From Escherichia coli (lineage in GTDB: Bacteria > Pseudomonadota > Gammaproteobacteria > Enterobacterales > Enterobacteriaceae), in assembly GCF_051903065.1 (NCBI RefSeq), contig NZ_CP178438.1: DNA of 64,000 nucleotides. One strand, 5' to 3'. The position numbers were made by a program, and so were the translations under genes. Of the stretch, positions 13,955-60,472 are shown piece after piece. How positions within the stretch are numbered: position 1 is the first letter of the stretch; each line of letters begins with the position of its first letter. The notes under the pieces are model-generated. The model worked only from the letters and a program-made list of their open reading frames with translations, did no database searches and was not told the origin of the DNA.

Positions 13955-15164
<1,210 letters not shown>

Positions 15165-15168
<4 letters not shown>

Positions 15169-15815
15169 ACCTCTGCTCCGGGTTTGATCAGCATCAGACC
15201 ACAGCCGAACGCGCGGCTTTTGCCATACCCCTGACTGAGACGTTGCAGAAATAACCCGGGATCGGTGACCGTAAGCATCCCCGTATAATCCACGCTACTG
15301 AACTGGATCAGTTGCCGGGAGTTTTCCCGCCGCAGTTGCTGTTGTCGGTAGGCATCAACCGAGGTATCCAGCAGTGTAAAACCGCTTCTCTCCCCCTGCG
15401 CTGCCAGCCAGTCCAGCGCCGCCTGTTGTTGATGCAACCAGACATCACGCCCTTCCGCCTGTCCCCTCACCTGCCGTTTCGCCTCCATCAGCAGATCGTG
15501 GCGCTTGCCCGCTTTACAAATTGTGGGATTCGCCCGCAGGTTGAAACAAAGGGATTGTCCGGTACGCAGCTCCGGAGCAAATGACCGGCATTCGATAGTG
15601 AAAGTTTCACTTTCCGCCGGGCGTTCCTGCGAGAGGACAAAAAAGCGAAACGCACCCTGAAGTTCCTCCCGACGATAAAGAAATTGCCTTTCTTTGCCGC
15701 CAGGGAAGAGATCCCACAGCCACTGATGCATCACATATTCACCGCGATCCACCAGATGCAGCAACTGCGCAGGCAAAAGCTGAGCGGTATGTAAGGTTAT
15801 TCTTGAGAGGTACAT
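15165..15815 (-). CDS. cas6e: Cas6e (CasE/Cse3) crRNA endoribonuclease
   Basis: Position between cas5 and cas1; C-terminal G-rich loop SRAFGCGLM typical of Cas6e. Start placed at internal ATG (MYLSRITLH...); track ORF extends 46 codons upstream into cas5. Confidence 0.8.
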
Positions 15816-16543
15816 GGTTCCTCCTTGCTGAGCCACGGCCCCTGATTGACGGTGCGTTCCCCAAACAGCCACTGCTGGCGATTTAAAGGAACATCCCGGC
15901 GGCGTAATATTTTGCTCACGACCAGGCCGTCGTGCTCCCCTTCCCACCAGCATTCATCCTGAAGTTTCGGGAGTGAGACTTTCAGGTCGTGGAAATGATC
16001 CTGATACTGTTGGTATGCGTTACGTAAAACATCAGACGCGTTGCCTTCGAGCAGTAACGGCGCAAGTGGTAATGCCAGCGGATGACTTTTTCGCCCCAGA
16101 TAAAGAGGAAAAACTGGATGGCGTAAACCGCCCTGCAACTGTTCGAGGCTGTAAGGCGCATCGGCTGTTGTTGCCACCGCCACCATCCACCAGGCGTCGG
16201 TGTAGTAGTCGCGCCGGGAGATAATCGCGCTCAGAAGATCAGAGTCGCTCAACTCTTCGCGACGGCTGAAATAACGCGCTTTGCGCACCTCTTTTGGCAT
16301 CTGGATCGTGTGATAATCCCGTGCCCAGCGCGGGTTACGGCTGGCGCAAACCACCAGTGAATAGTGGCGATTAAACGCGTTTAAGCGTTCGGTATCATCA
16401 CGCCGAATCCCTACCCCGGCAGCCAGCAGACCCAGCAATGCTGAGCGCGAAGGCAGTTCATGGGTATGACGCACTTCGCCGGGGGCATCGACGCCCCAGG
16501 ATGCCATTGGCCCATGAAGCTGAAAAATCAGATATTGGCTCAT
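15797..16543 (-). CDS. cas5: Cas5e (CasD) Cascade subunit
   Basis: 248-aa ORF MSQYLIFQLHGPMASWG..., Cas5 N-terminal pattern; operon position. Confidence 0.85.
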   Translation of the reverse strand: MSQYLIFQLHGPMASWGVDAPGEVRHTHELPSRSALLGLLAAGVGIRRDDTERLNAFNRHYSLVVCASRNPRWARDYHTIQMPKEVRKARYFSRREELSDSDLLSAIISRRDYYTDAWWMVAVATTADAPYSLEQLQGGLRHPVFPLYLGRKSHPLALPLAPLLLEGNASDVLRNAYQQYQDHFHDLKVSLPKLQDECWWEGEHDGLVVSKILRRRDVPLNRQQWLFGERTVNQGPWLSKEEPCTSQE

Positions 16544-16553
16544 AAGCCGCCCC

Positions 16554-17609
16554 TTACGCGCAGATAAAGTCCAGTACGTCCTTCATGCTTCCCTGTTTGT
16601 TCATCACGTCAAAACTTGCGCATTCAGTCTTCTGTTCGTAGACCGTATTCATGTTTTCGCGAAGCGTTGTAATACGCTGCACCGCCACATCTAACTGACG
16701 GGTACCATTAATGGGTTCATAGAAAGCCGCCGCCAGAGAACGCGGTTGATCAGTGCCTTTTTCCGCCAGCGCCCAGGAGGCGTAGGCACGGCTGGCAAAG
16801 CTATTTTGTTTACCGGTTGGGGAAACTTTAAGCGCGGCTTCCGTAAAAGCGCGTATGGTCTGATTAGCTAACGCTTCGTCACCGCCGAGGTTTTCTACCA
16901 GCAGATCTTTATCAATGCAGATATAGGTGTAGAAAAGTGCTGAACCGAATCCGGTTTCTCCGAGATGCCCGGCACCGGCATCTTCAGAGGCCTGGCGCAA
17001 ATCATCAACGGCGGTGAAAAAATCATCTTCGACAATCGTTTCACTGACACCAAACGCATGCGCGACCTGGCAGGCGGCTTCAACATTAAACTCAGGTTTA
17101 TTCGCCAGCATACGACCAAACATAGCGATATCTACCGCTATACGGTCTTTACGTAACAACGCGAGATCTTCCTCTTTTGGCGCGCGCTTTTCTTCTGCCA
17201 GTTGATGGGCCAGCGCTTTTACGGCGTCAAATTCTGCCGGGCTGATATGAACTAATTGTTCAGTTTCGGCGTTAGTGAGCGGATCTTTTGGTTTTTTGTC
17301 GTTTTTAGCTTTCCCAAGATAATCTGCAATTTTTGCCGCCCATTCGATGGCTTTTTTCTCTTCGATTCCTTTCTCAATCAGGATAGTTGCCGCCTCACGC
17401 GCAATTCGCCCACTGCGAATACCAATATGGCCCGCCAGTGCCTGTTCAAAAAGTGCAGAAGTGCGCCACGCACGTTTCAGACTTTGTGAGGAAACGCGCA
17501 GACGCGTTGCACCACCCAGTACCACAGTTTTTGGCGCACCAGTATCATCACGGTTAAGGTTGGCAGCAGGGTAAGCGGTTAACAAATGAAGCTGAATAAA
17601 TGTTGTCAT
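16554..17609 (-). CDS. cas7: Cas7e (CasC) Cascade backbone subunit
   Basis: 351-aa ORF MTTFIQLHLLTAYPAANLNRDDTGAPK..., Cas7e N-terminal signature. Confidence 0.92.
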   Translation of the reverse strand: MTTFIQLHLLTAYPAANLNRDDTGAPKTVVLGGATRLRVSSQSLKRAWRTSALFEQALAGHIGIRSGRIAREAATILIEKGIEEKKAIEWAAKIADYLGKAKNDKKPKDPLTNAETEQLVHISPAEFDAVKALAHQLAEEKRAPKEEDLALLRKDRIAVDIAMFGRMLANKPEFNVEAACQVAHAFGVSETIVEDDFFTAVDDLRQASEDAGAGHLGETGFGSALFYTYICIDKDLLVENLGGDEALANQTIRAFTEAALKVSPTGKQNSFASRAYASWALAEKGTDQPRSLAAAFYEPINGTRQLDVAVQRITTLRENMNTVYEQKTECASFDVMNKQGSMKDVLDFICA

Positions 17610-17620
17610 GAGATAGTCCT

Positions 17621-18160
17621 TTATTGATTTTGTTCGTTATCGGCGTCGCCAGCCTGGTAATATTCCAGCGCCCAGCGGATACGGATAAATTCGGTTGGCC
17701 GCTGCTGGCGGCGGTGATGATTGAGCAGGTCGTCGCTCTCCTGACACCAGCGGAAAATATCGTCTGCCAAAGAGATAAGATTGACGGAACCGTTTAATAA
17801 TTTGACTGCGCGTCGTAACTGGCGCAGTAATTCATCCGGCGTTTTTACTGCCGACAGGCAAGTAAAACGCCCCTCTGACATTACCGCCGCCAGCTGTGCG
17901 GCAAAAGGCTGCCGTTCATCAATGGCTTTAACATTGGCGGCAACGGCGGCGACCAGTGCCAGTGCGGTAAAACGCCACTCTTGTGCTTCAATTTTCCACA
18001 AAGTGTGGGTCTGCATCAGCAGAGAACGAAACCCTTCTGACAAGCAAACATCATTAACCGTTGTGCTACGCCGCAGACTGGCACGATTGCCGCGTTTAGC
18101 CTGCAACTCTTCGTGCCATTTACGCAGCGTGGCTTTGTGCCCGTCTTTTACAATACTCAT
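17621..18160 (-). CDS. cse2: Cse2 (CasB/Cas11e) Cascade small subunit
   Basis: 179-aa ORF between cse1 and cas7. Confidence 0.85.
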   Translation of the reverse strand: MSIVKDGHKATLRKWHEELQAKRGNRASLRRSTTVNDVCLSEGFRSLLMQTHTLWKIEAQEWRFTALALVAAVAANVKAIDERQPFAAQLAAVMSEGRFTCLSAVKTPDELLRQLRRAVKLLNGSVNLISLADDIFRWCQESDDLLNHHRRQQRPTEFIRIRWALEYYQAGDADNEQNQ

Positions 18161-19725
18161 TCAGCAGCCTCCTGCTTTTTCTCCCTGGCGGCTTTAGCAC
18201 TTTGCTTCTCCGCCGATGTTGTAAAATATTTTTTGCGCGCGGTCATGACGCGTTTTAAATCAACGGGCTCATAAGGATTGGTGAATACACGCTCGTCAAA
18301 ATCCTGACGCGAGAATAACCAAATCTCCTTATTCCATTTGCTGAGTAATTCATCCGCATCCTGACCTTCTTCAATTTGGCGCACTAACCTCAGGAAGCGA
18401 TGCTGAGTTTTGTTCCAGAAGTCGATATCCACAAAACTGAAATCACCCCGTGCACCTTTTGGATCGGAGAACCATGCTTCTTTCAATGCACTCCGTAACA
18501 GACTTAGAATGCGTGAAGCCGTTTGCGCAGCCAGCCGCAGTTTCGGTATCTGGCCTTCTTTTTTATTGAGCAGCAGCGGGAAACGGTGTTCGTACCAACA
18601 GCGGGCTTTCATGTTGTCGAAATCATAGCCAAATCCCCATAGGCCTACTTTTGCCTGCTTGAGACTGCTGGCATTAAAGAGTTTCACCACCAGAGCGGGA
18701 AGTTCCGTATTGTTTTCTGACTTACCCGTTTCGATAAGGCCTAACCAGTCGCGCCAAATTAAACCGCCTGGTTGTGGTTTAACTGAGTAAAACTCGCCAC
18801 CCTCTTTAAGTGGTACACGGTAAGGCGTTAATGGATGCTGCCACATGGCATAATTCGCACCGTAATTTTTGGTCGTCATCAGGCTCAGAAGCGCGTCGTC
18901 CTGCTCACCGCAAATATCGCAGTTGCCGACTGTCGTGGTATTAAAATCAATACGAATACGCCGCGGCATTCCCCAGTACGCCTGGAGTTTATTGACCTGA
19001 TCATCGGTTACCACCGCACCGGCCAGTTCGCTGGTACGCGTCGGGCCAAGCCAGGGGAAAACCAGATCGTCAAATTTTTTGGGTAGCGGTAAGTCGGCTT
19101 CATCCTGCGGCATCACGTTGAGCCACAGTTTGCGCCACAAGGGGGCTTGTTGATTGCCCTGATACTCCTGCAATTCAATCAGAGTCGTCATCGGCCCACC
19201 GCCGCGTAAACCGGTTCGGTAGCCTTTGCCGCCTGACGGTGCATTTAACTGTAGGGAGAACAGAGCTAACGCGGAACAATGAGGGCATACGTGTTCAGTC
19301 ACGCCACGCTTAATAAAGTGGTCTTTATTAAACTTCGTTGTTTGAGCGCCGGGAATCTCAGGCAGTAATGAAGCAACCTGAACTTTATCTCCCGTGAGCG
19401 CCTCGAAATCCTGCATAAATGAAGGGGAATCTGGCCCAAACTGGAAAGCATGTTCTAAAGACAGCAATGCTTCCCGTAGCTTTTCGGCTTCCAGTCCGTC
19501 TTGCCAGATATCATCCCAACGACCATGATTTTTGGGCGCGAAACTGGTTTGTAGTAGCCCCAGTAAAAACTGCCATGCTGCTCCCTGGAGATCTGCTCGT
19601 GGCGCAGCGATATCGACAACATTTTCATCAGCCAGATCGACTGGCGCCAGTTTGCCTGTCGTTCCGTCTTTAAAACGAACGGGCAACCACGGGGTTGTCA
19701 GAAGTGAAAACGAGTTCATACGCAT
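18157..19725 (-). CDS. cse1: Cse1 (CasA/Cas8e) Cascade large subunit
   Basis: 522-aa ORF at head of the Cascade operon; alternative start 2 codons in (MNSFSLL). Confidence 0.88.
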   Translation of the reverse strand: MRMNSFSLLTTPWLPVRFKDGTTGKLAPVDLADENVVDIAAPRADLQGAAWQFLLGLLQTSFAPKNHGRWDDIWQDGLEAEKLREALLSLEHAFQFGPDSPSFMQDFEALTGDKVQVASLLPEIPGAQTTKFNKDHFIKRGVTEHVCPHCSALALFSLQLNAPSGGKGYRTGLRGGGPMTTLIELQEYQGNQQAPLWRKLWLNVMPQDEADLPLPKKFDDLVFPWLGPTRTSELAGAVVTDDQVNKLQAYWGMPRRIRIDFNTTTVGNCDICGEQDDALLSLMTTKNYGANYAMWQHPLTPYRVPLKEGGEFYSVKPQPGGLIWRDWLGLIETGKSENNTELPALVVKLFNASSLKQAKVGLWGFGYDFDNMKARCWYEHRFPLLLNKKEGQIPKLRLAAQTASRILSLLRSALKEAWFSDPKGARGDFSFVDIDFWNKTQHRFLRLVRQIEEGQDADELLSKWNKEIWLFSRQDFDERVFTNPYEPVDLKRVMTARKKYFTTSAEKQSAKAAREKKQEAAE

Positions 19726-20115
19726 CCTCTCGTAGAAAAGACCATCCCTGGTCGGTTGTCCATCACCATATTTTCAGATTTAGTTGGAGACTTAATCTGA
19801 GTCGGATAAAAGAAAAGACGTTGAATGTGATACGAAAATCGAACTTAGTTTGTCGTTTTGAAAGCAGACTTAGCACAAGTTGAAGCAAAAAAATCGACAA
19901 CATCGTAGTCCTCTTCACCGCAGCTTTTCACCGGTCACGAAAATACGCCTTGTAACGGTGTGACTCAACTCCGGATCCGGACATTATTTAAAATCTTTGT
20001 TTCTCATTAACTCATAGCAATTACCCATCTATCATAATCACAATAGCATTGATAAAATAAATCCATTCCCTGATTCTAGGGATTAACCAAGTTAGTGAGA
20101 TACAAAAATTGGTTC

Positions 20116-20144
20116 CTGTTCCCCGCGTCAGCGGGGATAAGCCC
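20116..20144 (+). repeat. Solitary degenerate CRISPR-repeat-like element in the cas3-cse1 intergenic region
   Basis: cTGTTCCCCGCGtCAGCGGGGATAAgCCc is 24/29 identical to the crRNA-sense repeat GAGTTCCCCGCGCCAGCGGGGATAAACCG. Stem CCCCGC/GCGGGG is intact. crRNA sense is on the plus strand, opposite to the cas genes and to both arrays. Confidence 0.75.
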
Positions 20145-20166
20145 TGGCGTCATCCGACGCCAGGGC
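20141..20166 (-). terminator. Strong hairpin 4 nt downstream of cas3 stop (possible cas3 terminator)
   Basis: GCCCTGGCGTC-atcc-GACGCCAGGGC, 11-bp stem; on the cas3 sense strand it is followed by the repeat-derived hairpin and a TTTTTG run. Confidence 0.5.
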
Positions 20167-20169
20167 ATC

Positions 20170-22869
20170 TCAATCAACCTTGCCAATCAATCCTTCCGTA
20201 GCCGAATACCCGCAGCTTTCGTCATCGGTGACTAAAATCACGTTTGCCATCTCCGGATCTTGCCGTTGTTCAATGCACCACTGCCTGAACGCTTCCCCTT
20301 CCAGTAAAGAAAATTCATCCCGATGTTTTTTCCACCAGCTTCGACGCACTCTGGCAACGCTCATTTCCCATGCGTGAGCACCGCTGGCATAAGGCTTCAC
20401 CACACCGTCAATACAGGTAGCCAGCCACAGGGAAACAGACTCTTCAGCCAGACGTGTCGACAGCTTTTCCGGGAGGTAATCGTTGATATTGGCGGCATAG
20501 CCGGGCCTGAAGTTCAGCATAAACTTTTTAGCCATTGCGCGATCGCAGTAATATTTGCCCACTTGCTCCTGCTCGCTGCGGGCAAATCCTTCCGGCATTA
20601 CCACGTCCTCACCGTAGACGGATTCAATAAGAAGCCGGGCTGCGTGTGGCATCTGAATAGCGCCTTGCTCACGCAATACTCGCTGCGTCAGCCAGATTCG
20701 CCCATGATCGGGGTAGACATATGCGCTGTTACGCATCGCACTACCAAACCATTCGTCACCCGGAGAGTCGTCCCAGACGGGGGCCAGAATCAGCAATTCA
20801 GGAGGGGAACGCTCGTCTTTTCCATCACGTTTTAACTGACCATTAATATCACGAATATGCCGTTGTAATCGCCCCGCTCGCTGGATCAGCAAATCAATGG
20901 GGGCCAGGTCGGAGATCATTTCGTCCAGGTCAATATCCACACTTTGCTCAATTACTTGTGTACAAACAATGACTTGAGATGATCTTTTTAAACTACAATT
21001 TTTACCAAAGCGTGCCAGCGTTTCCGTTTCAATTCGCTGGCGATCGCTAAAAGCAAAGCGGCTATGAAAAAGTGAAAGGCTGGAAGCAGGAATGACGCCG
21101 CGGGCAAGTAACTGACGATAAACCTTAATAGCGTCATCGACAGAATTCCGGATCCAGGCGATGCATTTCCCCTGACTTACCGCTGATTCGATACGCGCAA
21201 TACATTCTTGTTCGCTATGAAGCCAACCCACGCTCACGCTACGCTCAACGTCTTTGCGCGTCGCTACCCGGTGCGAATGCACATCGGATTTCGTGACATG
21301 CGTCAGCCAGGGGTAATCATCCTTTTCTAGGAACGGAGCTTCTTGCTGGCCCTCTGTGCCACGCGCAAAGGCGGCGACAAGTTTGTCGCGCTGCTGTTGA
21401 GATAACGTAGCAGAAAGCAAAATGACGCTGTTTCCGCCACGCACCTGTCGCTCAATCAACCCTTCAAGAATGTACGACATGTAAGCGTCACAGGCGTGGA
21501 TCTCATCAGCCAGCAGGATTTTGTTACTCAACCCCAGAAGCCGCAGATTATTATGTTTAAACGGCATCACTGCCATCATCGCCTGATCCAGCGTGCCGAC
21601 GCCAATTTCAGCCAGTAAAGCCTTCTTGTTACTGTCGGCAAACCAGGCTGCACATCCTTGACTGAACGCTTGTTCATCCGGTTCTTCTGACCCGACTAAA
21701 TCACCGGACCAGAGTGATTCATTAAAGCGTTCCATTAATGTACGGGCGCTGTGTGCCAGCACCAGGCTGGGGCGGGATTCTGGCGAAAAGAAAGCAAGCC
21801 AGGTTTTGACCAGCCGATCGTACATGGCATTGGCCGTTGCCATTGTTGGCAGGCCAAAAAACAAACCCTGAGCTTTATTCTCAGCCATCAACCTGTGCGC
21901 CAGGATAAGCGCCGCTTCTGTTTTACCTGCGCCAGTCACATCTTCCAGAATAAATAACTGTGGCCCTGGCTGGCTGATATCCAGATCCAGTACCTTTTGC
22001 TGTAATGGTGTCGGGTGCTCAATAAAAGGAAACAGCGTATTAATTCCGGTGAAAGGTGCGGTTTCTGCTTTTGGAGGAAAGACGGTTAAGGCGTTTTGAG
22101 CCTGAACTAAAGTTTTCTGCCAGTAATCTTTAATATTCATTGTCTGTGCGACGCGTGGAAAAAATCGCGTTGACGAACCCGTCCAGTCTGCGAGTACGAC
22201 TGTTGCAGAGATATACCAGGAAAGTTGTTTTAAAAGTTCAACGCCCTCGTCATCATCCCAGAATGTGGGAATCTCTATGAGCGGAAACAGTGACTTGATT
22301 TCAAGGAGAAAATCTCGTGCGGCAGCTTTGTCTTCAGGCAGGAAATTATCCAGTTCATCAATACGGTCAGGGGGCCGACCATGATGCCCGGTAGTCATGG
22401 GCATCCACATCGCTATTACACGTTTAAGTTTGCGAGTAGAGAGTGAAGAGGCAGGAAGCAATTCTTCGCATTCACTTAAATAATGATGCCACAACCAGTA
22501 GCCCAGCGTTGAATGAGAGATCTTTTCGTAATTCTTTCTTGCGCCTTCCGGAACCTTGAGTTGTGGGTGCAGGTAAAGTTGCTGAAATGAGCGGGCAAAT
22601 TTTCCAATATCGTGCCAGCACAACAACCAGGCGAAAAATTGAGCCGCCTGTTCCTTGTCAGAAATCCCTAATTGACGAAAATAATCAGCCAGCCCGAAGC
22701 AATTTCTTTTAACCATTAAATAGCCCATCGCGGCCACATCCAGCGAATGCCAGCAAAGAAGGTGATAGTCGTCACCCCCTTCTTTCTCGTCGCGTCGGGT
22801 TTTTCCCCAGAAATCAAAGAAAGTCACAATATTTTTATCCTTCAGTAAACTTAAAGGATATTTACGCAT
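20170..22869 (-). CDS. cas3: Cas3 HD-nuclease/helicase
   Basis: 899-aa ORF with N-terminal HD-like region and SF2 helicase motifs (DVTGAGKTEA, DEIH). Confidence 0.93.
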   Translation of the reverse strand: MRKYPLSLLKDKNIVTFFDFWGKTRRDEKEGGDDYHLLCWHSLDVAAMGYLMVKRNCFGLADYFRQLGISDKEQAAQFFAWLLCWHDIGKFARSFQQLYLHPQLKVPEGARKNYEKISHSTLGYWLWHHYLSECEELLPASSLSTRKLKRVIAMWMPMTTGHHGRPPDRIDELDNFLPEDKAAARDFLLEIKSLFPLIEIPTFWDDDEGVELLKQLSWYISATVVLADWTGSSTRFFPRVAQTMNIKDYWQKTLVQAQNALTVFPPKAETAPFTGINTLFPFIEHPTPLQQKVLDLDISQPGPQLFILEDVTGAGKTEAALILAHRLMAENKAQGLFFGLPTMATANAMYDRLVKTWLAFFSPESRPSLVLAHSARTLMERFNESLWSGDLVGSEEPDEQAFSQGCAAWFADSNKKALLAEIGVGTLDQAMMAVMPFKHNNLRLLGLSNKILLADEIHACDAYMSYILEGLIERQVRGGNSVILLSATLSQQQRDKLVAAFARGTEGQQEAPFLEKDDYPWLTHVTKSDVHSHRVATRKDVERSVSVGWLHSEQECIARIESAVSQGKCIAWIRNSVDDAIKVYRQLLARGVIPASSLSLFHSRFAFSDRQRIETETLARFGKNCSLKRSSQVIVCTQVIEQSVDIDLDEMISDLAPIDLLIQRAGRLQRHIRDINGQLKRDGKDERSPPELLILAPVWDDSPGDEWFGSAMRNSAYVYPDHGRIWLTQRVLREQGAIQMPHAARLLIESVYGEDVVMPEGFARSEQEQVGKYYCDRAMAKKFMLNFRPGYAANINDYLPEKLSTRLAEESVSLWLATCIDGVVKPYASGAHAWEMSVARVRRSWWKKHRDEFSLLEGEAFRQWCIEQRQDPEMANVILVTDDESCGYSATEGLIGKVD

Positions 22870-37794: not shown

Positions 37795-39273
37795 ATGTCG
37801 AAGAAATACATCATAGGGATTGATGGCGGAAGTCAGAGCACAAAAGTGGTGATGTACGATCTGGAAGGTAACGTGGTTTGCGAAGGCAAAGGTTTATTGC
37901 AGCCGATGCACACGCCAGATGCCGATACCGCAGAACATCCTGACGACGATTTATGGGCATCATTATGTTTTGCCGGTCACGATTTGATGAGTCAGTTTGC
38001 CGGGAATAAAGAAGATATTGTCGGTATTGGTCTGGGATCCATCCGTTGCTGCCGTGCGTTATTGAAAGCCGATGGCACGCCAGCTGCGCCATTGATTAGC
38101 TGGCAGGATGCACGCGTAACGCGTCCCTACGAACACACTAATCCTGACGTGGCATATGTCACCTCTTTTTCGGGTTATCTAACGCATCGCTTAACCGGCG
38201 AGTTTAAAGACAATATCGCCAACTATTTTGGTCAGTGGCCAGTGGATTATAAGAGCTGGGCATGGAGCGAAGATGCTGCGGTAATGGAGAAGTTTAATAT
38301 CCCTCGTCATATGCTGTTTGATGTGCAAATGCCTGGCACCGTCCTCGGACATATCACACCACAAGCCGCACTGGCGACACATTTCCCGGCAGGGCTGCCG
38401 GTTGTTTGTACCACCAGTGATAAACCGGTAGAAGCTCTGGGAGCCGGATTACTGGATGATGAAACGGCGGTGATTTCTCTTGGCACCTACATCGCGCTGA
38501 TGATGAACGGTAAAGCACTGCCGAAAGATCCGGTGGCGTACTGGCCGATTATGTCTTCTATACCGGAAACATTGCTGTATGAAGGGTACGGTATCCGTAA
38601 AGGCATGTGGACGGTGAGCTGGCTACGCGACATGTTAGGCGAGTCGTTAATTCAGGATGCCAAAGCACAGGATCTTTCACCGGAAGATTTGCTCAACAAA
38701 AAAGCTTCTTGTGTGCCGCCTGGCTGTAATGGTCTGATGACGGTGCTGGACTGGCTGACCAACCCGTGGGAACCCTACAAACGTGGGATTATGATCGGCT
38801 TTGATTCCAGCATGGATTACACATGGATATATCGTTCGATACTGGAAAGCGTGGCGCTGACGCTGAAGAACAATTACGACAATATGTGTAATGAAATGAA
38901 TCACTTTGCAAAGCATGTGATCATTACTGGCGGCGGTTCGAACAGCGATCTATTTATGCAAATTTTTGCCGACGTGTTCAACCTTCCGGCACGCCGTAAC
39001 GCCATTAACGGTTGTGCAAGTCTGGGGGCAGCGATCAATACGGCGGTAGGTCTGGGGCTATACCCGGATTACGCAACGGCTGTCGACAAAATGGTTCGCG
39101 TGAAAGATATCTTTATGCCTGTTGAGAGCAATGCCAAACGCTACGACGCGATGAATAAAGGTATTTTCAAAGCCCTAACCAAACATACTGATGTGATCCT
39201 GAAAAAATCGTATGAAGTGATGCATGGGGAATTGGGGAATGCGGATTCGATCCAGAGCTGGTCGAATGCGTAA
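37795..39273 (+). CDS. ygcE: FGGY-family carbohydrate kinase
   Basis: 492-aa ORF MSKKYIIGIDGGSQSTKVVMYD..., FGGY kinase N-terminus. Confidence 0.88.
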   Translation: MSKKYIIGIDGGSQSTKVVMYDLEGNVVCEGKGLLQPMHTPDADTAEHPDDDLWASLCFAGHDLMSQFAGNKEDIVGIGLGSIRCCRALLKADGTPAAPLISWQDARVTRPYEHTNPDVAYVTSFSGYLTHRLTGEFKDNIANYFGQWPVDYKSWAWSEDAAVMEKFNIPRHMLFDVQMPGTVLGHITPQAALATHFPAGLPVVCTTSDKPVEALGAGLLDDETAVISLGTYIALMMNGKALPKDPVAYWPIMSSIPETLLYEGYGIRKGMWTVSWLRDMLGESLIQDAKAQDLSPEDLLNKKASCVPPGCNGLMTVLDWLTNPWEPYKRGIMIGFDSSMDYTWIYRSILESVALTLKNNYDNMCNEMNHFAKHVIITGGGSNSDLFMQIFADVFNLPARRNAINGCASLGAAINTAVGLGLYPDYATAVDKMVRVKDIFMPVESNAKRYDAMNKGIFKALTKHTDVILKKSYEVMHGELGNADSIQSWSNA

Positions 39274-39319
39274 GTGAGGAAGACCGGGCGGGAAACTGCC
39301 CGGCCTGAACATACCTGAA

Positions 39320-39458
39320 TGGTTATCCCCGCTGGCGCGGGGAACATAAGTTCGACAACTTAAAAAATGATAACAAGTCCGGTTTATCCCCGCTGATGCA
39401 GGGAACATAATAAAAACTTTAACTAGTTCGGTTTATCCCTGTTTTTACAAGGAATATT
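39320..39458 (-). CRISPR. Decayed CRISPR remnant: three degenerate type I-E repeats with irregular spacing
   Basis: tGGTT-ATCCCCGCTGGCGCGGGGAACAT (39320-39347), CGGTTTATCCCCGCTGATGCAGGGAACAT (39380-39408), CGGTTTATCCCTGTTTTTACAAGGAATAT (39430-39458); intervening segments 32 and 21 nt. Confidence 0.8.
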
Positions 39459-39519
39459 AACTACACTCGATGTCTTTAGAATAAAAGACAATACGAATCG
39501 CACTTTATCAATTTTCACT

Positions 39520-40576
39520 GGCTTTGTTGAATAAATCGAACTTTTGCTGAGTTGAAGGATCAGATCACGTATCTTCCCGACAACGCAGACCGTTCCGTGG
39601 CAAAGCAAAAGTTCAAAATCACCAACTGGCCCACCTACAATAAAGCCCTCATCAACCGTGGCTCCATAACTTTCTGGCTGGATGATGAAGCTATTCAGGC
39701 CTGGTATGAGTCAGCAACACCTTCTTCACGAGGCAGACCTCAGCGCTATTCTGACCTTGCCATCACGACTGTGCTGGTCATTAAACGCGTATTCAGGCTG
39801 ACCCTGCGCGCTGCGCAGGGCTTTATTGATTCCATTTTTTCTCTGATGAACGTTCCGCTACGCTGCCCGGATTACAGCTGTGTCAGCAGGCGGGCAAAGT
39901 CGGTTAATGTCAGTTTCAAAACGCCCACCCGGGGTGAAATCGCACACCTGGTAATTGATTCCACCGGGCTGAAGGTCTTCGGTGAAGGCGAGTGGAAAGT
40001 CAAAAAGCATGGCCAGGAACGCCGCCGTATCTGGCGTAAGCTGCATCTCGCCGTTGACAGTAAAACACATGAAATCATCTGCGCTGACCTGTCGCTGAAC
40101 AACGTTACGGACTCAGAGGCCTTCCCCGGGTTAATCCGGCAAACCCACCGGAAAATCAGGTCAGCCGCCGCCGATGGCGCTTACGATACCCGGCTATGTC
40201 ACGATGAACTGCGGCGTAAGAAAATCAGCGCGCTTATCCCTCCCCGAAAAGGTGCGGGTTACTGGCCCGGTGAATATGCAGACCGTAACCGTGCAGTGGC
40301 TAATCAGCGAATGACCGGGAGTAATGCGCGGTGGAAATGGACAACAGATTACAACCGTCGCTCGATAGCGGAAACGGCGATGTACCGGGTAAAACAGCTG
40401 TTCGGGGGTTCACTGACACTGCGTGACTACGATGGTCAGGTTGCAGAGGCTATGGCCCTGGTACGAGCGCTGAACAAAATGACGAAAGCAGGTATGCCTG
40501 AAAGCGTGCGTATTGCCTGAAAACACAACCCGCTACGGGGGAGACTTACCCGAAATCTGATTTATTCAACAAAGCC
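39520..40576 (+). mobile_element. IS903-family (IS5 superfamily) insertion sequence, 1057 bp, intact, with 9-bp target site duplication
   Basis: 18-bp terminal inverted repeats GGCTTTGTTGAATAAATC at 39520-39537 and (reverse complement) 40559-40576. Direct repeat ATTTTCACT at 39511-39519 and 40577-40585. One transposase ORF spans the element. Confidence 0.93.
39597..40520 (+). CDS. IS903-family DDE transposase
   Basis: Open frame from 39552 (TTG) in the track; likely start GTG 39597, giving ~307 aa. Start assignment is uncertain. Confidence 0.85.
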   Translation: MAKQKFKITNWPTYNKALINRGSITFWLDDEAIQAWYESATPSSRGRPQRYSDLAITTVLVIKRVFRLTLRAAQGFIDSIFSLMNVPLRCPDYSCVSRRAKSVNVSFKTPTRGEIAHLVIDSTGLKVFGEGEWKVKKHGQERRRIWRKLHLAVDSKTHEIICADLSLNNVTDSEAFPGLIRQTHRKIRSAAADGAYDTRLCHDELRRKKISALIPPRKGAGYWPGEYADRNRAVANQRMTGSNARWKWTTDYNRRSIAETAMYRVKQLFGGSLTLRDYDGQVAEAMALVRALNKMTKAGMPESVRIA

Positions 40577-40976
40577 ATTTTCACTTAAAGTATGAACAGG
40601 ATATCTTTATTCATAAGAACTATTCATCAACAGCGTATAGAGGCGGTTATGTAAAACCACTCATTAGCCTCAAAACAAAGACAAATTTCCAGATTTATTA
40701 CTTAATCAATGAATAACAAGCTTAAAAAATACACTGTTATTCTAAAGAAAAAATTAACAGGCATTAATTAATATTAAAAAAATAATATATTAAAATTTCT
40801 TAACGGTTTAAGGATTATACAAATAACACTTTGATTAAATTTGATTTTTTGTATCGATAATTGTGAACTTATCTGGCATGGGGAACTATTTTGAACATGA
40901 GGTGTTACGTGGATATGTTGCTTATTACAAGTACAGCTAATATAAAAACTTGAGAAAGAGATAACGGGTTATATGG

Positions 40977-41554
40977 TGGTTTATCCCCGCTGGCGCGGGG
41001 AACTCGTACTGACGGATAAAAATAATACCTTTTGCGGCGGTTTATCCCCGCTGGCGCGGGGAACTCGTCAACGTTTTTCATGTGGGCATGAGTTGGGGCG
41101 GTTTATCCCCGCTGGCGCGGGGAACTCTATTCGGCCTCGTGCTGGTCGTGACAAAATACCGGTTTATCCCCGCTAGCGCGGGGAACTCTGGCGATATTGC
41201 CTACCGCAACAAAGAAAATACGGTTTATCCCCGCTAGCGCGGGGAACTCATCCACGAATCCAGTGCAAATGAGTTTGTTGGCGGTTTATCCCCGCTAGCG
41301 CGGGGAACTCATTGTGACTACCACCGATAACCCCGCAACCACCGGTTTATCCCCGCTAGCGCGGGGAACTCCTGCATTCGCCTGCGGTTATCAGATCGCT
41401 AAACGGTTTATCCCCGCTAGCGCGGGGAACTCGCTGCCATTACTTCCCGCCAGCGTTGCTCTGGCGGTTTATCCCCGCTAGCGCGGGGAACTCGCAGAGA
41501 ATCGTTCGATTGCCCCTACATCTTCCGGTTTATCCCCGCTGGCGCGGGGAACTC
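40977..41554 (-). CRISPR. CRISPR array 2 (type I-E): 10 repeats, 9 spacers of 32 nt
   Basis: 29-bp repeat CGGTTTATCCCCGCTGGCGCGGGGAACTC at 40977, 41038, 41099, 41160, 41221, 41282, 41343, 41404, 41465, 41526. Repeats 4-9 have CTAGCGC instead of CTGGCGC; repeat 1 starts with T. Leader on the high-coordinate side. Confidence 0.97.
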
Positions 41555-41700
41555 TCTAAACATAACCTATTATTAATTAATGATTTTTTAAGCCAGTCAC
41601 AATCTACCAACTTTACAGTATCACACAAACAACACATCCATTATGTTAAAGAGCGCTTAATCCATTGATTAAAAAGGTAAATATTTAAAATAACTCTATA
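41555..41700 (-). promoter_or_regulatory. CRISPR array 2 leader (AT-rich)
   Basis: AT-rich; contains CAATCTACCAAC about 45-58 nt from the first repeat as in leader 1, and a second similar copy AAAATCTACCAAAC further out. Confidence 0.65.
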
Positions 41701-41892
41701 CAAACTAAAATCTACCAAACTTTACCGCAATAATTTTCACTCCAACGAAAAATTAACGCCACAGAATTTGTAGAGAATGATAATGATTAGTCCAGGATGG
41801 GCAAAATGGAGGTTTTTCAGAGGCGACAAAGAATATAAATGAGTAGAAGTCTTTACAGGTTCCACCCATTTATAACGCTTATAAAAGTTTAA

Positions 41893-42564
41893 TCAGGCAA
41901 TATTTAGATATTTATGTGTTTGCATCGACAAACGCCAATTACGCGCAATGCAGATTTCAATGCACAATCGTGTGGCATCATCCTTTTGGCTAATCGGCTG
42001 CAGTGCAATGACTCGCGGTTTATCATCGGTCAGCGTTGCCAATAGTTCATCCAGTGCTTCAATATCGCGTACGCGCCCCACTGGATGCTTGATTTCGTTG
42101 GCTCGCTCCAGTGCCTGTGACAACACTTCATAGCCGCCGCGCATGTTCAGCTTTGGCGATACGGTAACCCAGGTATTCGGTGTGCAGCGTACCTCATGAG
42201 TACCACTGGTTTCGATCTGGCAGCTAAAACCGTTCTTTTCGAGCAGATCAGTCAGTGGTAGCAAATCATGAATGCAAGGCTCACCACCCGTAATCACCAC
42301 ATGCCGCGCGGTGTATCCCTGGCGACTAATGACAGCCAACAAGTCTTCACTGCTCGCCGCCCCCCACTTATCACTCTCTTTGGTCTTCGCCAGAATGCTG
42401 AAAAGGGAGACTTCCCGATCCTCAAGCTTTTCCCAGGTGTGTTTGGTGTCGCACCAGGCACAGCCAACCGGGCATCCCTGTAAACGAATAAAAATGGCGG
42501 GGACGCCGGTAAAGTAACCCTCACCTTGCAGGGTCTGGAACATCTCGTTAATCGGGTACTGCAT
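41893..42564 (-). CDS. queE: 7-carboxy-7-deazaguanine synthase (radical SAM)
   Basis: 223-aa ORF MQYPINEMFQTLQGEGYFTGVPAIFIRLQGCPVGCAWCDTK... Confidence 0.95.
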   Translation of the reverse strand: MQYPINEMFQTLQGEGYFTGVPAIFIRLQGCPVGCAWCDTKHTWEKLEDREVSLFSILAKTKESDKWGAASSEDLLAVISRQGYTARHVVITGGEPCIHDLLPLTDLLEKNGFSCQIETSGTHEVRCTPNTWVTVSPKLNMRGGYEVLSQALERANEIKHPVGRVRDIEALDELLATLTDDKPRVIALQPISQKDDATRLCIEICIARNWRLSMQTHKYLNIA

Positions 42565-43352: not shown

Positions 43353-44246
43353 ATGCGAAATTTTATCTTCCTTATGGCTTTCTTCTGTTCATCTGTGTTT
43401 GCCACACAAATTCCAGTACCTGAATCCCCCAAGTATGTGAATGACTTAACCGGCACATTAACAAACAGCGAAGTAAACACCCTGACCAACCAGATTAAAG
43501 CCCTGACGCAAAAAAACCACGCACAGTTGGTCGTGTTAGTGGTTGATACAACAGGCGATGAAACCATCGAGCAGTACGCAACGCGGGTATTCGATAGCTG
43601 GAAACCGGGTGATAAAGACCGCGATGATGGCGTTCTACTGTTAGTCGCCTGGCAGGATCATACCGTGCGTATTGAAATCGGTTACGGGCTGGAAGGTATT
43701 ATTACGGATGCACAGTCCGGGAAAATTATTCGCAACAGTATTATTCCTGCATTTAAAAAAGGCGACCTGGCTGGCGGTTTACAAAAGGGGATCAGCGATA
43801 TTGAAAGTCGTCTTACGGGGAATAATTTAGCAACGATAACACCGACCGATCACCCTTTGCCCTTTAGCGGTTGGTGGGCATTGTTAGTCTGGGCGATAGT
43901 ACTGACATTTATTTCTGCCAGAGGATATATCAAAACGCTGGGAGTAATTTGCTTCGCAGCTATTGTACTGGCCTTTGTTTTACCTATAGCAGGCTTCAGC
44001 GGAAGCTGGGGAGTACTCGCAACATTACTCTGCTTCGCCACACCGTTCCTGGCTGTCGCCATCGCTTTTACCCCCTTCGGCAAAAAAGTTCGGGATTTGA
44101 TGCGTGATGTCAACCAGCCATCACGCCATACAAGAAGCAATTCTTCCTCCCACTATTCATCATCGTCATCCTCTTCATTCAACAATGACAATTTCAGCGG
44201 TGGTGGCGGTTCATCTGGTGGCGGTGGCGCTTCCGGGCGCTGGTAA
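43353..44246 (+). CDS. TPM-domain membrane protein (YgcG-like), paralog 1
   Basis: Start at ATG 43353 (MRNFIFLMAFFCSSVFA signal peptide); TPM-like domain (DLTGTL..., VVLVVDTTGDETIEQYATRVFDSW), 2-3 TM helices, Ser-rich then Gly-rich tail ending GGGGSSGGGGASGRW. Confidence 0.8.
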   Translation: MRNFIFLMAFFCSSVFATQIPVPESPKYVNDLTGTLTNSEVNTLTNQIKALTQKNHAQLVVLVVDTTGDETIEQYATRVFDSWKPGDKDRDDGVLLLVAWQDHTVRIEIGYGLEGIITDAQSGKIIRNSIIPAFKKGDLAGGLQKGISDIESRLTGNNLATITPTDHPLPFSGWWALLVWAIVLTFISARGYIKTLGVICFAAIVLAFVLPIAGFSGSWGVLATLLCFATPFLAVAIAFTPFGKKVRDLMRDVNQPSRHTRSNSSSHYSSSSSSSFNNDNFSGGGGSSGGGGASGRW

Positions 44247-44260
44247 CAAAAGGAATTGAT

Positions 44261-45409
44261 ATGCGTATTTTTCTCTTACTTCTGATGCTATGCAGTTTTC
44301 AGGTATTCGCTGAACGATTGCCTTCAGTGAATGACTTAACCGGGACATTAACGACAGAAGAACAAAGTGTTTTAAATCAACAATTAAAGACTCTCGAGCA
44401 GCAAAACCACTTCCAGGTGGCCGTGTTAGTTACGCCAACCACAGGGGGCAAAAACATTAAACTTGCAGCCTCGCAGAGCTACGGGTTATATCACTGGAAA
44501 CCCATTGGAGAGAAGCGATACGGCGAAGGTATCTTAATTCTCGTCGTTTGGCCGGAAGGGCTGGCGTCAATGAAGATTGGACATGGACTGGAAGAGATGT
44601 TGCCGCCGGAACAAGCTGCGCAAATTGTTCGTTACCATATGCAGCCAGAATTCGAAAAAAACAATCTCTTTGCTGGATTAACGGGCGGAATTGAAAGCAT
44701 CGCACAGTTTACCCATATCAAAGCGAACCTTAGCCCTTTGGATGCTTTAGCCAATCATCTGTTTGCTAATCCGCAACGTTCGCTGCCATGTCTTGCCTGG
44801 ACACTGCTGATGATCGTTGCCATCGTTGTCCTCTGGCGATTTGCCAGCCGCCCACGGCGTGGCATATGGATGATATCGATGATTACCCCTATGGTCTGGT
44901 TTTTCTCCTTTCAGGACGATGTCATCATTCGGCGGGTATCGGTCGTTTGTTTTAGTTTATTGTTAGCAACAACCTGCAAGCAGCGTCTCGCGGTAGTTTT
45001 TAATATGTGCCGCGTATTTCCTATGATGCTGACCCCAAAAAATAAAAACTCTAAAGTGAAAAAACAAAAGAAGACTCCGCAGGTTCGTGAATCAGGACGA
45101 AATTCATTGTTTGTCGTGATGCTAATAATTATTGTGGGATGGTGCCTGGTGTTCGCCAGTAATAAAAATATTGCATTCATCTCAACAATTATTGGGTTAA
45201 TTGATCATTTTATCGGCCCAATAACCATTGCTGGCATCGTTCTGCTGATCATTGTGGCCAAATTTACTGGCAATCTTAAGCTGGGGTCAGGAGAAAAAAG
45301 CAACAGGAAAACGGGGAATCGTAATGCTCACTCTCGCTCTTCGTCGAGAAATTCTTTCCGCGGTGGTGGCGGTTCTTCAGGAGGCGGCGGTTCATCCGGC
45401 CGTTGGTGA
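44261..45409 (+). CDS. TPM-domain membrane protein, paralog 2 (divergent, extended membrane region)
   Basis: 382-aa ORF MRIFLLLLMLCSFQVFA...; same architecture with additional TM segments and a Lys-rich insert; tail GGGGSSGGGGSSGRW. Confidence 0.75.
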   Translation: MRIFLLLLMLCSFQVFAERLPSVNDLTGTLTTEEQSVLNQQLKTLEQQNHFQVAVLVTPTTGGKNIKLAASQSYGLYHWKPIGEKRYGEGILILVVWPEGLASMKIGHGLEEMLPPEQAAQIVRYHMQPEFEKNNLFAGLTGGIESIAQFTHIKANLSPLDALANHLFANPQRSLPCLAWTLLMIVAIVVLWRFASRPRRGIWMISMITPMVWFFSFQDDVIIRRVSVVCFSLLLATTCKQRLAVVFNMCRVFPMMLTPKNKNSKVKKQKKTPQVRESGRNSLFVVMLIIIVGWCLVFASNKNIAFISTIIGLIDHFIGPITIAGIVLLIIVAKFTGNLKLGSGEKSNRKTGNRNAHSRSSSRNSFRGGGGSSGGGGSSGRW

Positions 45410-45414
45410 TCGTA

Positions 45415-46308
45415 ATGCGCTTAATCTTTATTCTATTCACTTTGTGGTGCCTTCCTGGGCTTGCCCAGCAAATTGCTGTGCCGGAACTGCGCCAACAGGT
45501 GACCGATATTACTGGTACGTTAAGCACTTCTGAACAACAATCACTGACACAGCAACTGCAGGATATTACACATAAAACACGGGCGCAGGTCGCTGTATTA
45601 GTAGTGCCGTCCACCGGAGACGATTCCATTGAACAATATGCAACACGCGTTTTTGATAGCTGGAAACTGGGAGATAAGCAGAGAAACGATGGTATTTTAC
45701 TTCTGGTTGCCTGGGAGGATCATGCTGTTCGTATTGAGGTTGGCTACGGGCTGGAAGGGATGGTTACCGACCTGCAAGCGGCGAAAATTATCAGGGATAT
45801 ATTGATCCCTGCCTTCAAAAGTGATGACCTGATGGGTGGATTAACACTGGCAAGCGAAAATATCGGCGCGCTTCTGTTGAATGGTGAATTATCGGAAGAC
45901 AAGGGGGATTATTACAGTATCAATCCCCCTATTCCATTATCGCTTGCTGTAATTATATTGCTGGCGGTACTTTCATATTTTATTGTTTTTACCGATCCGT
46001 CGAATTTACCCTGGATCACTCTCACTGGCGCCATTTACGGGATGGTATTCCTCTATGTTGCCGAGCCAGGACCATGGACCAATTTAATCGTTGCCTGCGG
46101 TATGTTAACACCTTTTGCGATCGTGACGCTGGTTATTTTTTGGCTTATCGTTAATAAAAAGCTACGCGCCAAATACAAAAAACTCAGTAAAGAAAGAGCT
46201 TCAAGAAAAGGTTCTTCTTCATCCTCTTCCGGTGGAGGCTCAAGTGGCGGCGGATTTAGCGGCGGGGGCGGTTCTTCTGGCGGTGGCGGCGCGTCCGGTC
46301 GCTGGTAA
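45415..46308 (+). CDS. TPM-domain membrane protein, paralog 3
   Basis: Start at ATG 45415 (MRLIFILFTLWCLPGLA); close to paralog 1 in the TPM domain (VAVLVVPSTGDDSIEQYATRVFDSWK); tail GGGGSSGGGGASGRW. Confidence 0.8.
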   Translation: MRLIFILFTLWCLPGLAQQIAVPELRQQVTDITGTLSTSEQQSLTQQLQDITHKTRAQVAVLVVPSTGDDSIEQYATRVFDSWKLGDKQRNDGILLLVAWEDHAVRIEVGYGLEGMVTDLQAAKIIRDILIPAFKSDDLMGGLTLASENIGALLLNGELSEDKGDYYSINPPIPLSLAVIILLAVLSYFIVFTDPSNLPWITLTGAIYGMVFLYVAEPGPWTNLIVACGMLTPFAIVTLVIFWLIVNKKLRAKYKKLSKERASRKGSSSSSSGGGSSGGGFSGGGGSSGGGGASGRW

Positions 46309-57770: not shown

Positions 57771-59111
57771 TTAACGCACCATGCACGGGCGCTTATTATC
57801 GAACGTCCAGCCAGGAATCAGATACTGCATTCCCATCGCATCGTCACGCGCGCCAAGCCCGTGTTTCTGATACAGCTCATGGGCTTTCATCACTTGATCC
57901 ATATCGATTTCTACACCCAGCCCCGGTTTTTCTGGCACCTGTACCAGCCCGCCTTTGATCTCAAACGGTTCTTTGGTCAGGCGCTGATTGCCTTCCTGCC
58001 AAATCCAGTGCGTATCAATAGCAGTAATTTTACCCGGTGCAGCGGCGGCAACATGGGTAAACATCGCCAGGGAAATATCGAAGTGGTTGTTAGAGTGTGA
58101 ACCCCAGGTCAGGCCAAATTCATGGCACATTTGCGCCACACGTACCGAACCTTGCATCGTCCAGAAATGCGGATCCGCCAGCGGGATATCAACGGATTGT
58201 AACGAGAGCGTATGGCCCATCTGCCGCCAGTCGGTGGCGATCATATTGGTTGCAGTCGGCAGGCCAGTCGCGCGACGGAACTCTGCCATCACTTCACGCC
58301 CGGAGAAACCTTGCTCCGCACCACACGGATCTTCTGCATAAGCCAGCGAACCTTTCAGGTATTTACCAATTTTAATCGCTTCGTTCAGCGACCAGGCACC
58401 GTTAGGATCGAGCGTAATACGCGCCTGCGGGAAGCGTTGCGCCAGTGCCACAATAGACTCGGCCTCTTCTTCCCCGGCCAGTACACCGCCTTTCAGTTTG
58501 AAATCGTTGAAGCCATATTTTTCATACGCCGCTTCCGCCAGGCGCACCACCGCATCCGGCGTCATCGCTTCTTCATGACGCAGGCGATACCAGTCGCATG
58601 AGTCATCCGGCTGGCTTTGATACGGCAGCGGTGTGGCTTTGCGATTACCGACGAAGAACAGATAACCGAGCATTTCGACTTCGCTACGCTGTTGACCATC
58701 GCCCAGCAGCGATGCCACGTTAACCCCCAGATGCTGCCCCAGCAGATCCAGCATTGCCGCTTCTATCCCGGTAACTACATGAATAGTGGTACGCAAATCA
58801 AATGTCTGCAAACCGCGCCCGCCGGCATCACGATCGGCAAAAGTATTACGCACCAGCGTCAGAACGTTTTTGTATTCACCCAGCGTTTTACCCACTACCA
58901 GCGGAATCGCATCTTCCAGCGTTTTACGGATTTTCTCGCCGCCGGGAATTTCCCCTACGCCAGTGTGACCAGAATTATCTTTGATAATCACAATATTACG
59001 CGTGAAGAACGGTGCGTGTGCACCACTCAGATTCATCAGCATACTGTCATGGCCCGCCACCGGGATGACCTTCATTTCAGTAACAACAGGCGTCGTAAAT
59101 TGAGAACTCAT
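57771..59111 (-). CDS. gudD: Glucarate dehydratase
   Basis: Protein [32 protein letters not shown]...; start placed at ATG complement 59109-59111. Confidence 0.95.
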
Positions 59112-59131
59112 ATTTATGTCCTTTTTCAGAA

Positions 59132-60472
59132 TCAATGACGGCCGAAAACGGGACGTTTACGGTCAAAGGTCCAGCCGGGGATCAGGTACTGCATCGGGCC
59201 TGCGTCGTTACGCGCACCGCCAGGCAGACGTTTATAGGCCTCATGTGCCTTTTGTACCTGTTCCCAGTCCAGTTCCACGCCCAGACCGGGCGCATCAGGA
59301 ACGGCAATTTTTCCGTTTTTAATCTCCAGCGGATTTTGGGTCAGGCGACAATCGCCCTCCTGCCAAATCCAGTGGGTATCGATAGCGGTAGGATTACCCG
59401 GTGCCGCCGCGCCCACATGGGTAAACATCGCCAGAGAGATATCGAAATGGTTGTTGGAATGGCAGCCCCAGGTCAGCCCCCAGTCGTCGCAAAGCTGCGC
59501 CACGCGGACTGCACCGGAAAGCGTCCAGAAGTGCGGATCGGCAAGTGGAATATCTACCGCATTGAGCATCACCGCATGGCCCATTTCGCGCCAGTTGGTG
59601 GCGATCATATTAGTCGCGACGGGCAAGCCGGTCGCCCGCCGAAACTCCGCCATCACTTCACGTCCGGAGAAGCCCTGTTCTGCGCCGCATGGATCTTCGG
59701 CATAGGTAAGAACATCATTCAGCCCTTTGCATAAAGAAATGGCTTCATCAAGCAGCCAGGCACCGTTGGGATCAACGGTAATCCGCGCATCCGGGAAGCT
59801 TTTCTTCAATGCACGAACAGTGTCGATTTCTTGCTCGCCAGGTAACACGCCGCCCTTAAGTTTGAAATCTTTAAAGCCATAGCGATCCTGTGAGGCTTCC
59901 GCCAGACGCACAACGGCTTCGCTGTTCATCGCTTTCTGATGTCGCAACTGATACCACTCATGGTTGCCCGGCGTATTTTCCAGATAAGGAAGATCGGTTT
60001 TAGTCCGATCACCGATATAAAACAGATAACCGAGGACGGTGATAGCATCGCGTTGCTTGCCTGGCCCTAACAGTTCGCAGACCGGAACATTCAGCGCCTT
60101 ACCTAGCAGGTCAAGCAAGGCGGCTTCCAGCGCCGCCACGGCGTTAACGCGCAATTCAAAGGTCCAGGCCCCTTTACCGAAGGTATCAAAATCGGCGGCC
60201 TGATTACCTTTATGCACCTGCTGAACCACTTTATTCAGGCGCGCAACTTCCTGGCCCAGCACCATCGGAATAGCTTCGACCAGTGTTTGATAAATCACCT
60301 CTCCGCCCGGCGCTTCACCAATGCCGGTATGCCCGGCATTATCGGTGAGTACCACGATATTGCGGGTGAAGTATGCGTTATGCGCACCACCAATATTGAG
60401 CAACATGCTGTCATGTCCGGCGACCGGAATGACTTTCATATCAGTAATAACAGGACTGGATTGTGTCGTCAT
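59132..60472 (-). CDS. gudX: Glucarate dehydratase-related protein (enolase superfamily paralog)
   Basis: 446-aa [34 protein letters not shown]..., paralogous to gudD. Confidence 0.93.

Follow-up and report, generated by a model that had tools for sequence, protein, structure and literature searches.

A three-unit CRISPR remnant next to ygcE corresponds to CRISPR2.2, a small leaderless and probably largely inert array of Escherichia coli

The analysed window, a stretch of 64,000 nucleotides of Escherichia coli DNA, contains the CRISPR-II region between ygcE and queE. Its left boundary is formed by the coding sequence of ygcE (37795..39273, plus strand), which encodes an FGGY-family sugar kinase and was delimited from its open reading frame and the RefSeq annotation of homologous regions. 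The stop codon is followed by a G+C-rich hairpin, CCGGGC...GCCCGG (plus strand, approximate ends ~39282..39305), a terminator-like stem without a T run, which pairs over 9 bp when the K-12 equivalent is folded and received no call when the K-12 locus was scanned for terminators. Three type I-E repeat-like units, named here U1 (39320-39347), U2 (39380-39408) and U3 (39429-39457), begin 46 nt past the ygcE stop and enclose two spacers of 32 nt (S1, 39348-39379) and 20 nt (S2, 39409-39428), all of them read on the minus strand. Beyond U3 lie the first 62 nt of an AT-rich gap (39458..39519), an IS903-type element of the IS5 family with a length of 1,057 bp (39520..40576, plus strand), the remainder of the gap (40577..40976), the CRISPR2.3 array (40977..41554, minus strand), its leader together with the intergenic DNA to queE (41555..41892, minus strand; leader described in PMC3903273), and queE itself, also named ygcF (41893-42564, minus strand). 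CRISPR2.3, which was delimited by a repeat search and by the RefSeq 'CRISPR' feature in the homologue of strain 23CRST031, comprises ten repeats ending in AACTC and nine spacers. The crRNA-sense strand of both CRISPR-II arrays is the minus strand, and the CRISPR2.3 leader runs from 41555 onward and adjoins queE. A further array of eight repeats ending in AACAC is located at 13403-13858 and adjoins the genes cas2-cas1-cas6e-cas5-cas7-cse2-cse1-cas3 (13955-22869), which were assigned by ORF size and order. One spacer of CRISPR2.3 (41067-41098, GTCAACGTTTTTCATGTGGGCATGAGTTGGGG; within 41006-41098) is missing from 23CRST031, the closest complete genome, in which the other eight spacers are common with the window and their order is kept.

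The three units differ from the type I-E consensus to different degrees. U1 (TGGTTATCCCCGCTGGCGCGGGGAACAT, 28 nt) shows two substitutions and a 1-nt deletion, as one T is missing from the TTT run and the first base is T instead of C; the single-base deletion recognised in the first-pass annotation is this one. A T in place of the usual C is also the first base of the leader-distal terminal repeat of CRISPR2.3 (40977), a feature common to it and U1 (39320). U2 (CGGTTTATCCCCGCTGATGCAGGGAACAT, 29 nt) has four differences from the 29-nt consensus (25/29), two in the loop, one in the stem, which results in a G-U pair on the minus strand, and a terminal C>T change, while its 5'-handle AUAAACCG is intact. 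The loop substitutions reported before were thus found in U2, where they are accompanied by the stem change. U3 (CGGTTTATCCCTGTTTTTACAAGGAATAT, 29 nt) has ten differences (19/29), and its first 11 nt on the plus strand, which correspond to the cleavage site and handle on the minus strand, are unchanged. The periods are 61 nt for S1 and 49 nt for S2; a spacing of 32 and 21 nt had been given earlier, of which the first value is correct and the second is 20 nt by the boundaries 39409-39428. Similarly, the AACAT ending, which had been described as shared by all units and unlike either active array, applies to U1 and U2 (as opposed to AACAC and AACTC), and U3 ends in AATAT. A possible fourth decayed unit within the ygcE hairpin ('...CCTGAACAT') was rejected, because its position 5 nt before U1 does not fit the register and it represents the flank of that hairpin.

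In the repeat search, U1 and U2 fell into the same register as all 18 canonical repeats from both arrays and were 74-77% identical to a canonical repeat over 31 nt, and U3 matched U2 over 46 nt at 74% identity. In addition, the exact 11-mer CGGTTTATCCC is kept in U2 and U3 and was seen elsewhere only in canonical repeats, with about 0.03 chance occurrences expected in 128 kb (window, both strands). These matches, together with the 11-mer kept in U2 and U3, show that the units are truly CRISPR-derived. The opposite reading, a chance resemblance, could point to U3, which taken by itself is only weakly like the consensus (19/29), but it has a practically negligible probability given the register of U1 and U2 with the canonical repeat, the position of U3, which has the repeat 11-mer and sits at a repeat-like distance after U2, and the literature, which counts the units as CRISPR2.2. 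The earlier claim of a decayed CRISPR remnant adjoining ygcE was borne out.

In K-12 MG1655, the interval from ygcE (b2776) to queE/ygcF (b2777) contains the same three units and two spacers, identical except for one SNP in the U1 loop, and strain 23CRST031 shows no difference across the stretch. The first-pass annotation had proposed a comparison with related strains, and it revealed a species-wide element: a 247-nt query (39274-39520) was at least 80% covered in 4,100 of 5,426 complete E. coli genomes, with 2,835 matching records being at least 99% identical, and the segment from S1 to U3 was found in 4,040 of the 5,426 genomes searched. In the type I-E system of E. coli, CRISPR2.1 adjoins the cas genes, and CRISPR-II (ygcE-ygcF) contains either the two arrays CRISPR2.2 and CRISPR2.3, which are 0.5 kb apart, or a single array, CRISPR2.2-3; only CRISPR2.1 and CRISPR2.3 adjoin a leader, and CRISPR-II contains sporadic IS elements (PMC3903273; PMC3737337). 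The name CRISPR2.2 goes back to Diez-Villasenor et al. (2010), as cited in PMC3903273 and PMC4489801. Judged by its sequence, the remnant is this mini-array of E. coli, species-wide and already published. It agrees with the published CRISPR2.2 in position, three units of type-2 repeat, two spacers that are constant between strains, an AT-rich gap of ~0.45 kb to CRISPR2.3 and the lack of a leader, but differs in the IS903-type element located within the gap here, 62 nt from U3. This strain-specific insertion is the sole novelty over the literature since 2010, and since the remnant is the known, species-wide CRISPR2.2, the finding is real but ordinary. Recognising CRISPR2.2 is useful for annotation, because RefSeq has no feature annotated under the CRISPR2.2 matches and scans will therefore keep finding it afresh.

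The inserted element has perfect 18-bp terminal inverted repeats (GGCTTTGTTGAATAAATC) and a transposase ORF (39552-40520, plus strand) that matches NCBIfam NF033579, IS5 family transposase, with an E value of 6e-107. It is flanked by a 9-bp target duplication, ATTTTCACT (39511-39519 and 40577-40585), so that the first 62 nt of the gap end with one copy and the remainder consists of the second copy and 391 nt. With its length of 1,057 bp, 18-bp inverted repeats, 9-bp duplication and single DDE transposase ORF, the element resembles the IS903/IS102 group of the IS5 family, the IS903-type label being based on length, repeats, duplication and NF033579. After removal of the IS and one duplication copy, an AT-rich gap of 453 nt results, the flanks of which, including the first 62 nt, are collinear with K-12 and 23CRST031. 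The earlier description had the IS as what sets the remnant apart from the active array. However, K-12 and thousands of other strains contain the same units followed by ~455 bp of AT-rich DNA to CRISPR2.3 and no IS, and as the gap exists in these strains, the IS did not create the separation; it is a clean secondary insertion into a pre-existing gap. At this site, the IS was absent from all 5,426 complete E. coli genomes searched. An independent IS5-type insertion (ISKpn26-family) is present in E. coli A10 (L088, NZ_CP195143.1; locus position ~356), 27 nt past U3, and the gap beside CRISPR2.2 has thus been the target of IS elements more than once.

In E. albertii, E. whittamii, the O4:H5 strain CU532-9 and single-array E. 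coli, the array between ygcE and queE has the T-deleted U1 as its terminal repeat as well. In E. albertii, U1 is followed by normal repeats, in the O4:H5 strain and E. whittamii a lone U1 is fused directly to leader 2.3, and in the single-array strains (L003, L004) the array starts with a T-deleted U1 that ends in AACTC. In Citrobacter, Enterobacter and other genera with ygcE orthologues, no convincing repeat array was detected in the 3.5 kb downstream, the exceptions being Klebsiella spallanzanii, which has canonical repeats ~3.3 kb downstream of the ygcE orthologue, and two weak approximate matches. Because the T-deleted U1 is terminal across the Escherichia relatives and convincing counterparts were absent from other genera, this comparison identifies U1 as the ancient, degenerate repeat that terminates the locus at its leader-distal end in Escherichia. 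The earlier suggestion of an ancient array boundary was borne out by the terminal position of U1 in these relatives. Modified terminal repeats were reported in 100% of the arrays at this locus, referred to as 'CRISPR2' (Touchon and Rocha, PMC2886076).

Degenerate terminal repeats are known from CRISPR arrays, and U1, with a T deletion common to Escherichia species, is one of them. In contrast, U2 and U3 are positioned on the leader side of U1 and yet are more decayed, which reverses the usual gradient and fits a tail severed from its leader. The single array CRISPR2.2-3 likewise begins with U1 adjoining ygcE, but there U1 ends in AACTC and leads directly into a normal series of repeats with variable spacers that extends to leader 2.3, without S1, U2, S2, U3 or the gap. 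U2 and U3 have three derived states in common relative to the consensus (positions 18, 21 and 29), and S2 matches the last 20 nt of S1 in register at 12/20 positions (P ~0.02), which suggests that U2 and U3 originated from an old 49-bp tandem duplication of a spacer tail plus repeat. A single form of the locus is found in E. albertii, E. whittamii and the O4:H5 strain. The double form occurs in E. coli and in E69, a lineage that is filed under E. coli but diverges from the window at 28% of the ygcE four-fold sites. In the E69 lineage (L006 5023-5115), U1 lacks the deletion, S1 has two changes, U3 is identical, and U2 and S2 are missing; the leader 2.3/intergenic region of the window is only 4.7% divergent from this lineage. 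Furthermore, E. coli-like metagenome contigs were found with the forms U1-S2-U3 (two contigs) and U1-S1-U3 (one contig). These forms indicate that units were lost by repeat-repeat deletion, and they are consistent with repeat-repeat recombination or slippage; the former can also turn the double form into the single form. In E. coli SCPM-O-B-8794 (L034, 4977-5120), no CRISPR is present between ygcE and queE, which are separated by ~150 nt of unrelated intergenic DNA.

The first-pass annotation had described a progressive decay up to a largely destroyed stem in the last unit. This was not confirmed, as all three hairpins are kept on the crRNA-sense strand. In the predicted minus-strand folds, the canonical repeat forms a 7-bp stem with a 4-nt loop at -15.1 kcal/mol, and the same 7-bp/4-nt fold is obtained for U1 (-15.1 kcal/mol), U2 (-12.1 kcal/mol) and U3 (-7.9 kcal/mol, z -2.9), with one C·A mismatch each in the plus-strand hairpins of U2 and U3. 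Compared to the consensus, both bases differ in two pairs of the U3 stem, which have become U-A instead of C-G, and a third C-G pair has become U-G. These compensatory changes were considered as proof of RNA-level selection and rejected: five random stem transitions keep all seven pairs with P = 0.13 on the minus strand and 0.27 on either strand, and the U3 stem is therefore weak evidence for selection. Across 11 unit variants, 98.7% of cells pair, and the shuffle control for this value, in which paralogous units are counted, is not independent evidence. The 3' half of the repeat (minus strand), GGGAUAAACCG, which represents the Cas6e cleavage site and the 8-nt 5' handle of the I-E system, is intact in U2 and U3. 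With this handle and the U1 hairpin, a crRNA of S1 would be canonical at both, if the region is transcribed at all, and as the hairpins are still foldable in the model, cutting of any read-through transcript by Cas6e may be possible. Two palindromes, AAGTTCGACAACTT inside S1 (39348-39361) and GTCTTTAGAATAAAAGAC located 17 nt past U3 (39474-39491), are likewise predicted to fold into hairpins in the K-12 block.

When the gap (453 nt, IS removed) was aligned with leaders 2.1 and 2.3 of the window, the scores were equalled by 280/300 and 35/300 shuffles, respectively, whereas in the control leaders 2.1 and 2.3 aligned with each other at a score of 29 versus 20.8±3.3 (8/300 shuffles). The idea of the gap as a recognisable decayed leader was discarded, as its likeness to both leaders does not exceed that of shuffled sequences. 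The promoter scan of the K-12 locus yielded three promoter-like sites versus 4.4 expected, none of them beside U3, the terminator scan of the same locus gave nothing above chance, and the Rfam search returned nothing relevant in the window region or in the IS-free K-12 locus. A search of phages and plasmids for a protospacer of S1 gave chance-level partial hits only, plus E. coli chromosomes filed as plasmids. No spacer turnover was detected in CRISPR2.2, the variants being point changes and whole-unit deletions. Of the features of a functional I-E array, CRISPR2.2 has consensus repeats with a palindromic core and cognate cas genes in the genome, and lacks a recognisable leader or promoter beside the first repeat and strain-variable spacers. 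Together with its retention in cas-less strains and its natural disruptions, these results fit a relic that takes up no spacers and does not form an independent transcription unit.

The diversity of the remnant and its flank is unevenly distributed. A block of ~220 nt (39348-39519 and 40586-40640 in the window; 3449-3668 in the K-12 locus L001), including S1, is nearly invariant in ~4,150 E. coli genomes, in contrast to strong polymorphism in the following 110 nt of the gap and at the 3' end of ygcE. In 51 full-length haplotypes of E. coli type, taken from both genomes and metagenomes, segregating sites other than singletons amounted to 12/54 at the four-fold sites of ygcE, 7/46 between the ygcE stop and U1, 3/28 in U1, 0/110 from S1 through U3, and 39/434 in the gap, where the first one occurs 74 nt after U3. 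The absence of such sites from S1 through U3 is significant compared to the gap (Fisher P 2e-4) and to the four-fold sites (Fisher P 7e-7). Of the 4,155 matching complete genomes, 3,964 have the window allele of these 110 nt at 99% identity or more, and for the K-12 allele of the gap this threshold is reached in 4,075 of ~4,150 genomes at nt 1-110 and in 2,373 of ~4,150 for the next 110 nt, where 788 genomes are at 90-95%. The divergence from E69 is 20% for the gap overall, 13.5% for its first 74 nt, 2/32 for S1 and 0/29 for U3, and in a divergent contig (L097) U2-S2-U3 is unchanged over its 78 nt, as opposed to four changes in S1 and five within the initial 74 nt of the gap. On these alignments, the fossil seems to vary less than would be expected of a neutral relic. 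The low diversity could be due to purifying selection, to a local sweep, or to mosaic recombination whose breakpoints lie at the repeats. Within E. coli, it is not specific to the CRISPR-like parts, as the invariant block runs ~110 nt into non-repeat DNA. That selection keeps the ~220-nt block, from S1 to ~110 nt past U3, and has given the former repeats a fixed RNA- or DNA-structure role is in our opinion doubtful; such a role could be that of an invariant crRNA-like RNA or of a barrier that keeps the convergent transcripts of ygcE and CRISPR2.3 apart, and it would explain why U2 and U3 retain their hairpins and the Cas6e cleavage-site and handle sequence. If this were true, decayed CRISPR repeats would here have been put to a new use.

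In our interpretation, CRISPR2.2, the small leaderless type I-E array of CRISPR-II (ygcE-queE/ygcF), is probably a relic that acquires no spacers and is largely or wholly inert. U1 is the old degenerate terminal repeat, and U2 and U3 together with the two fixed spacers form a frozen tail, which in this strain and in thousands of others is severed from leader 2.3, the sole leader of the locus, by ~0.45 kb of AT-rich DNA. Without an adjacent leader, CRISPR2.2 would take up no spacers, which would explain why its spacers are identical in all strains examined. Any CRISPR2.2 RNA would need read-through of the minus-strand CRISPR2.3 transcript, which in this strain would have to traverse 1,057 bp of the IS in antisense. 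As the array has no recognisable promoter of its own and would depend on read-through for any RNA, it is most likely non-acquiring and largely or wholly inert. The IS insertions and unit deletions that occur in nature indicate that its disruption is tolerated. However, the retained hairpins and the intact GGGAUAAACCG count against a neutral relic, being expected if Cas6e recognition still mattered.

Two other readings grant the element a present function. According to one of them, read-through from leader 2.3 would still reach the units, Cas6e would cut U3, U2 and U1, and a conserved S1 crRNA with the AUAAACCG handle from U2 and the hairpin from U1 would be directed at a fixed, possibly regulatory or self, target; an RNA with the 20-nt spacer might also be freed. 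The three hairpins in canonical register on the minus strand, the handle in U2 and U3, the canonical 32-nt length of S1, the complete I-E cas operon in the window (13955-22869), the unusually low diversity of spacers and units, and the lack of a predicted intrinsic terminator between CRISPR2.3 and CRISPR2.2 in K-12 are all in line with such a residual activity. However, 20 nt is not known as a usual spacer length for Cascade guides of the I-E system. No target of S1 was found in phages or plasmids, the invariant block reaches ~110 nt past U3 and so is not crRNA-specific, disruption by the IS in this strain, by the IS5 in A10 and by natural unit deletions is tolerated, and cas-less strains, such as BL21 derivatives, keep CRISPR2.2 (PMC3737337), which together make this reading very unlikely.

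According to the other reading, the segment from S1 to ~110 nt past U3 would be selected for a role outside immunity, its run of hairpins stopping or stabilising the convergent transcripts of ygcE (plus strand) and CRISPR2.3 (minus strand), or the segment acting as an unannotated small RNA or protein-binding site. This we consider unlikely, although less so than a residual crRNA. The sharp diversity valley (3,964 and 4,075 versus 2,373 of ~4,150 genomes) is what it would lead one to expect, the interspecies contrast with E69 goes in the same direction, and shuffled versions of the 293-nt K-12 block fold far less well on the minus strand than the block itself (z -5.6), but this z-score is driven by the CRISPR and ygcE hairpins themselves, and the compensated U3 stem alone has P ~0.13 under random transitions. 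Conservation between species does not extend to the start of the gap, since E69 diverges by 13.5% over the first 74 nt there. Moreover, wild strains have IS insertions inside the block, an Rfam match and a promoter or terminator call are missing, and mosaic recombination at the CRISPR repeats or a local sweep could produce the same pattern.

Outside the CRISPR loci, two further repetitive regions were observed in the window. At 43437-46306, diverged tandem paralogous segments recur with a spacing of 890 bp and contain Gly/Ser-rich coding repeats near 44192, 45355 and 46254, and at 57949-59612 there is a diverged 300-nt tandem pair with 76% identity, the copies being 1,364 bp apart.
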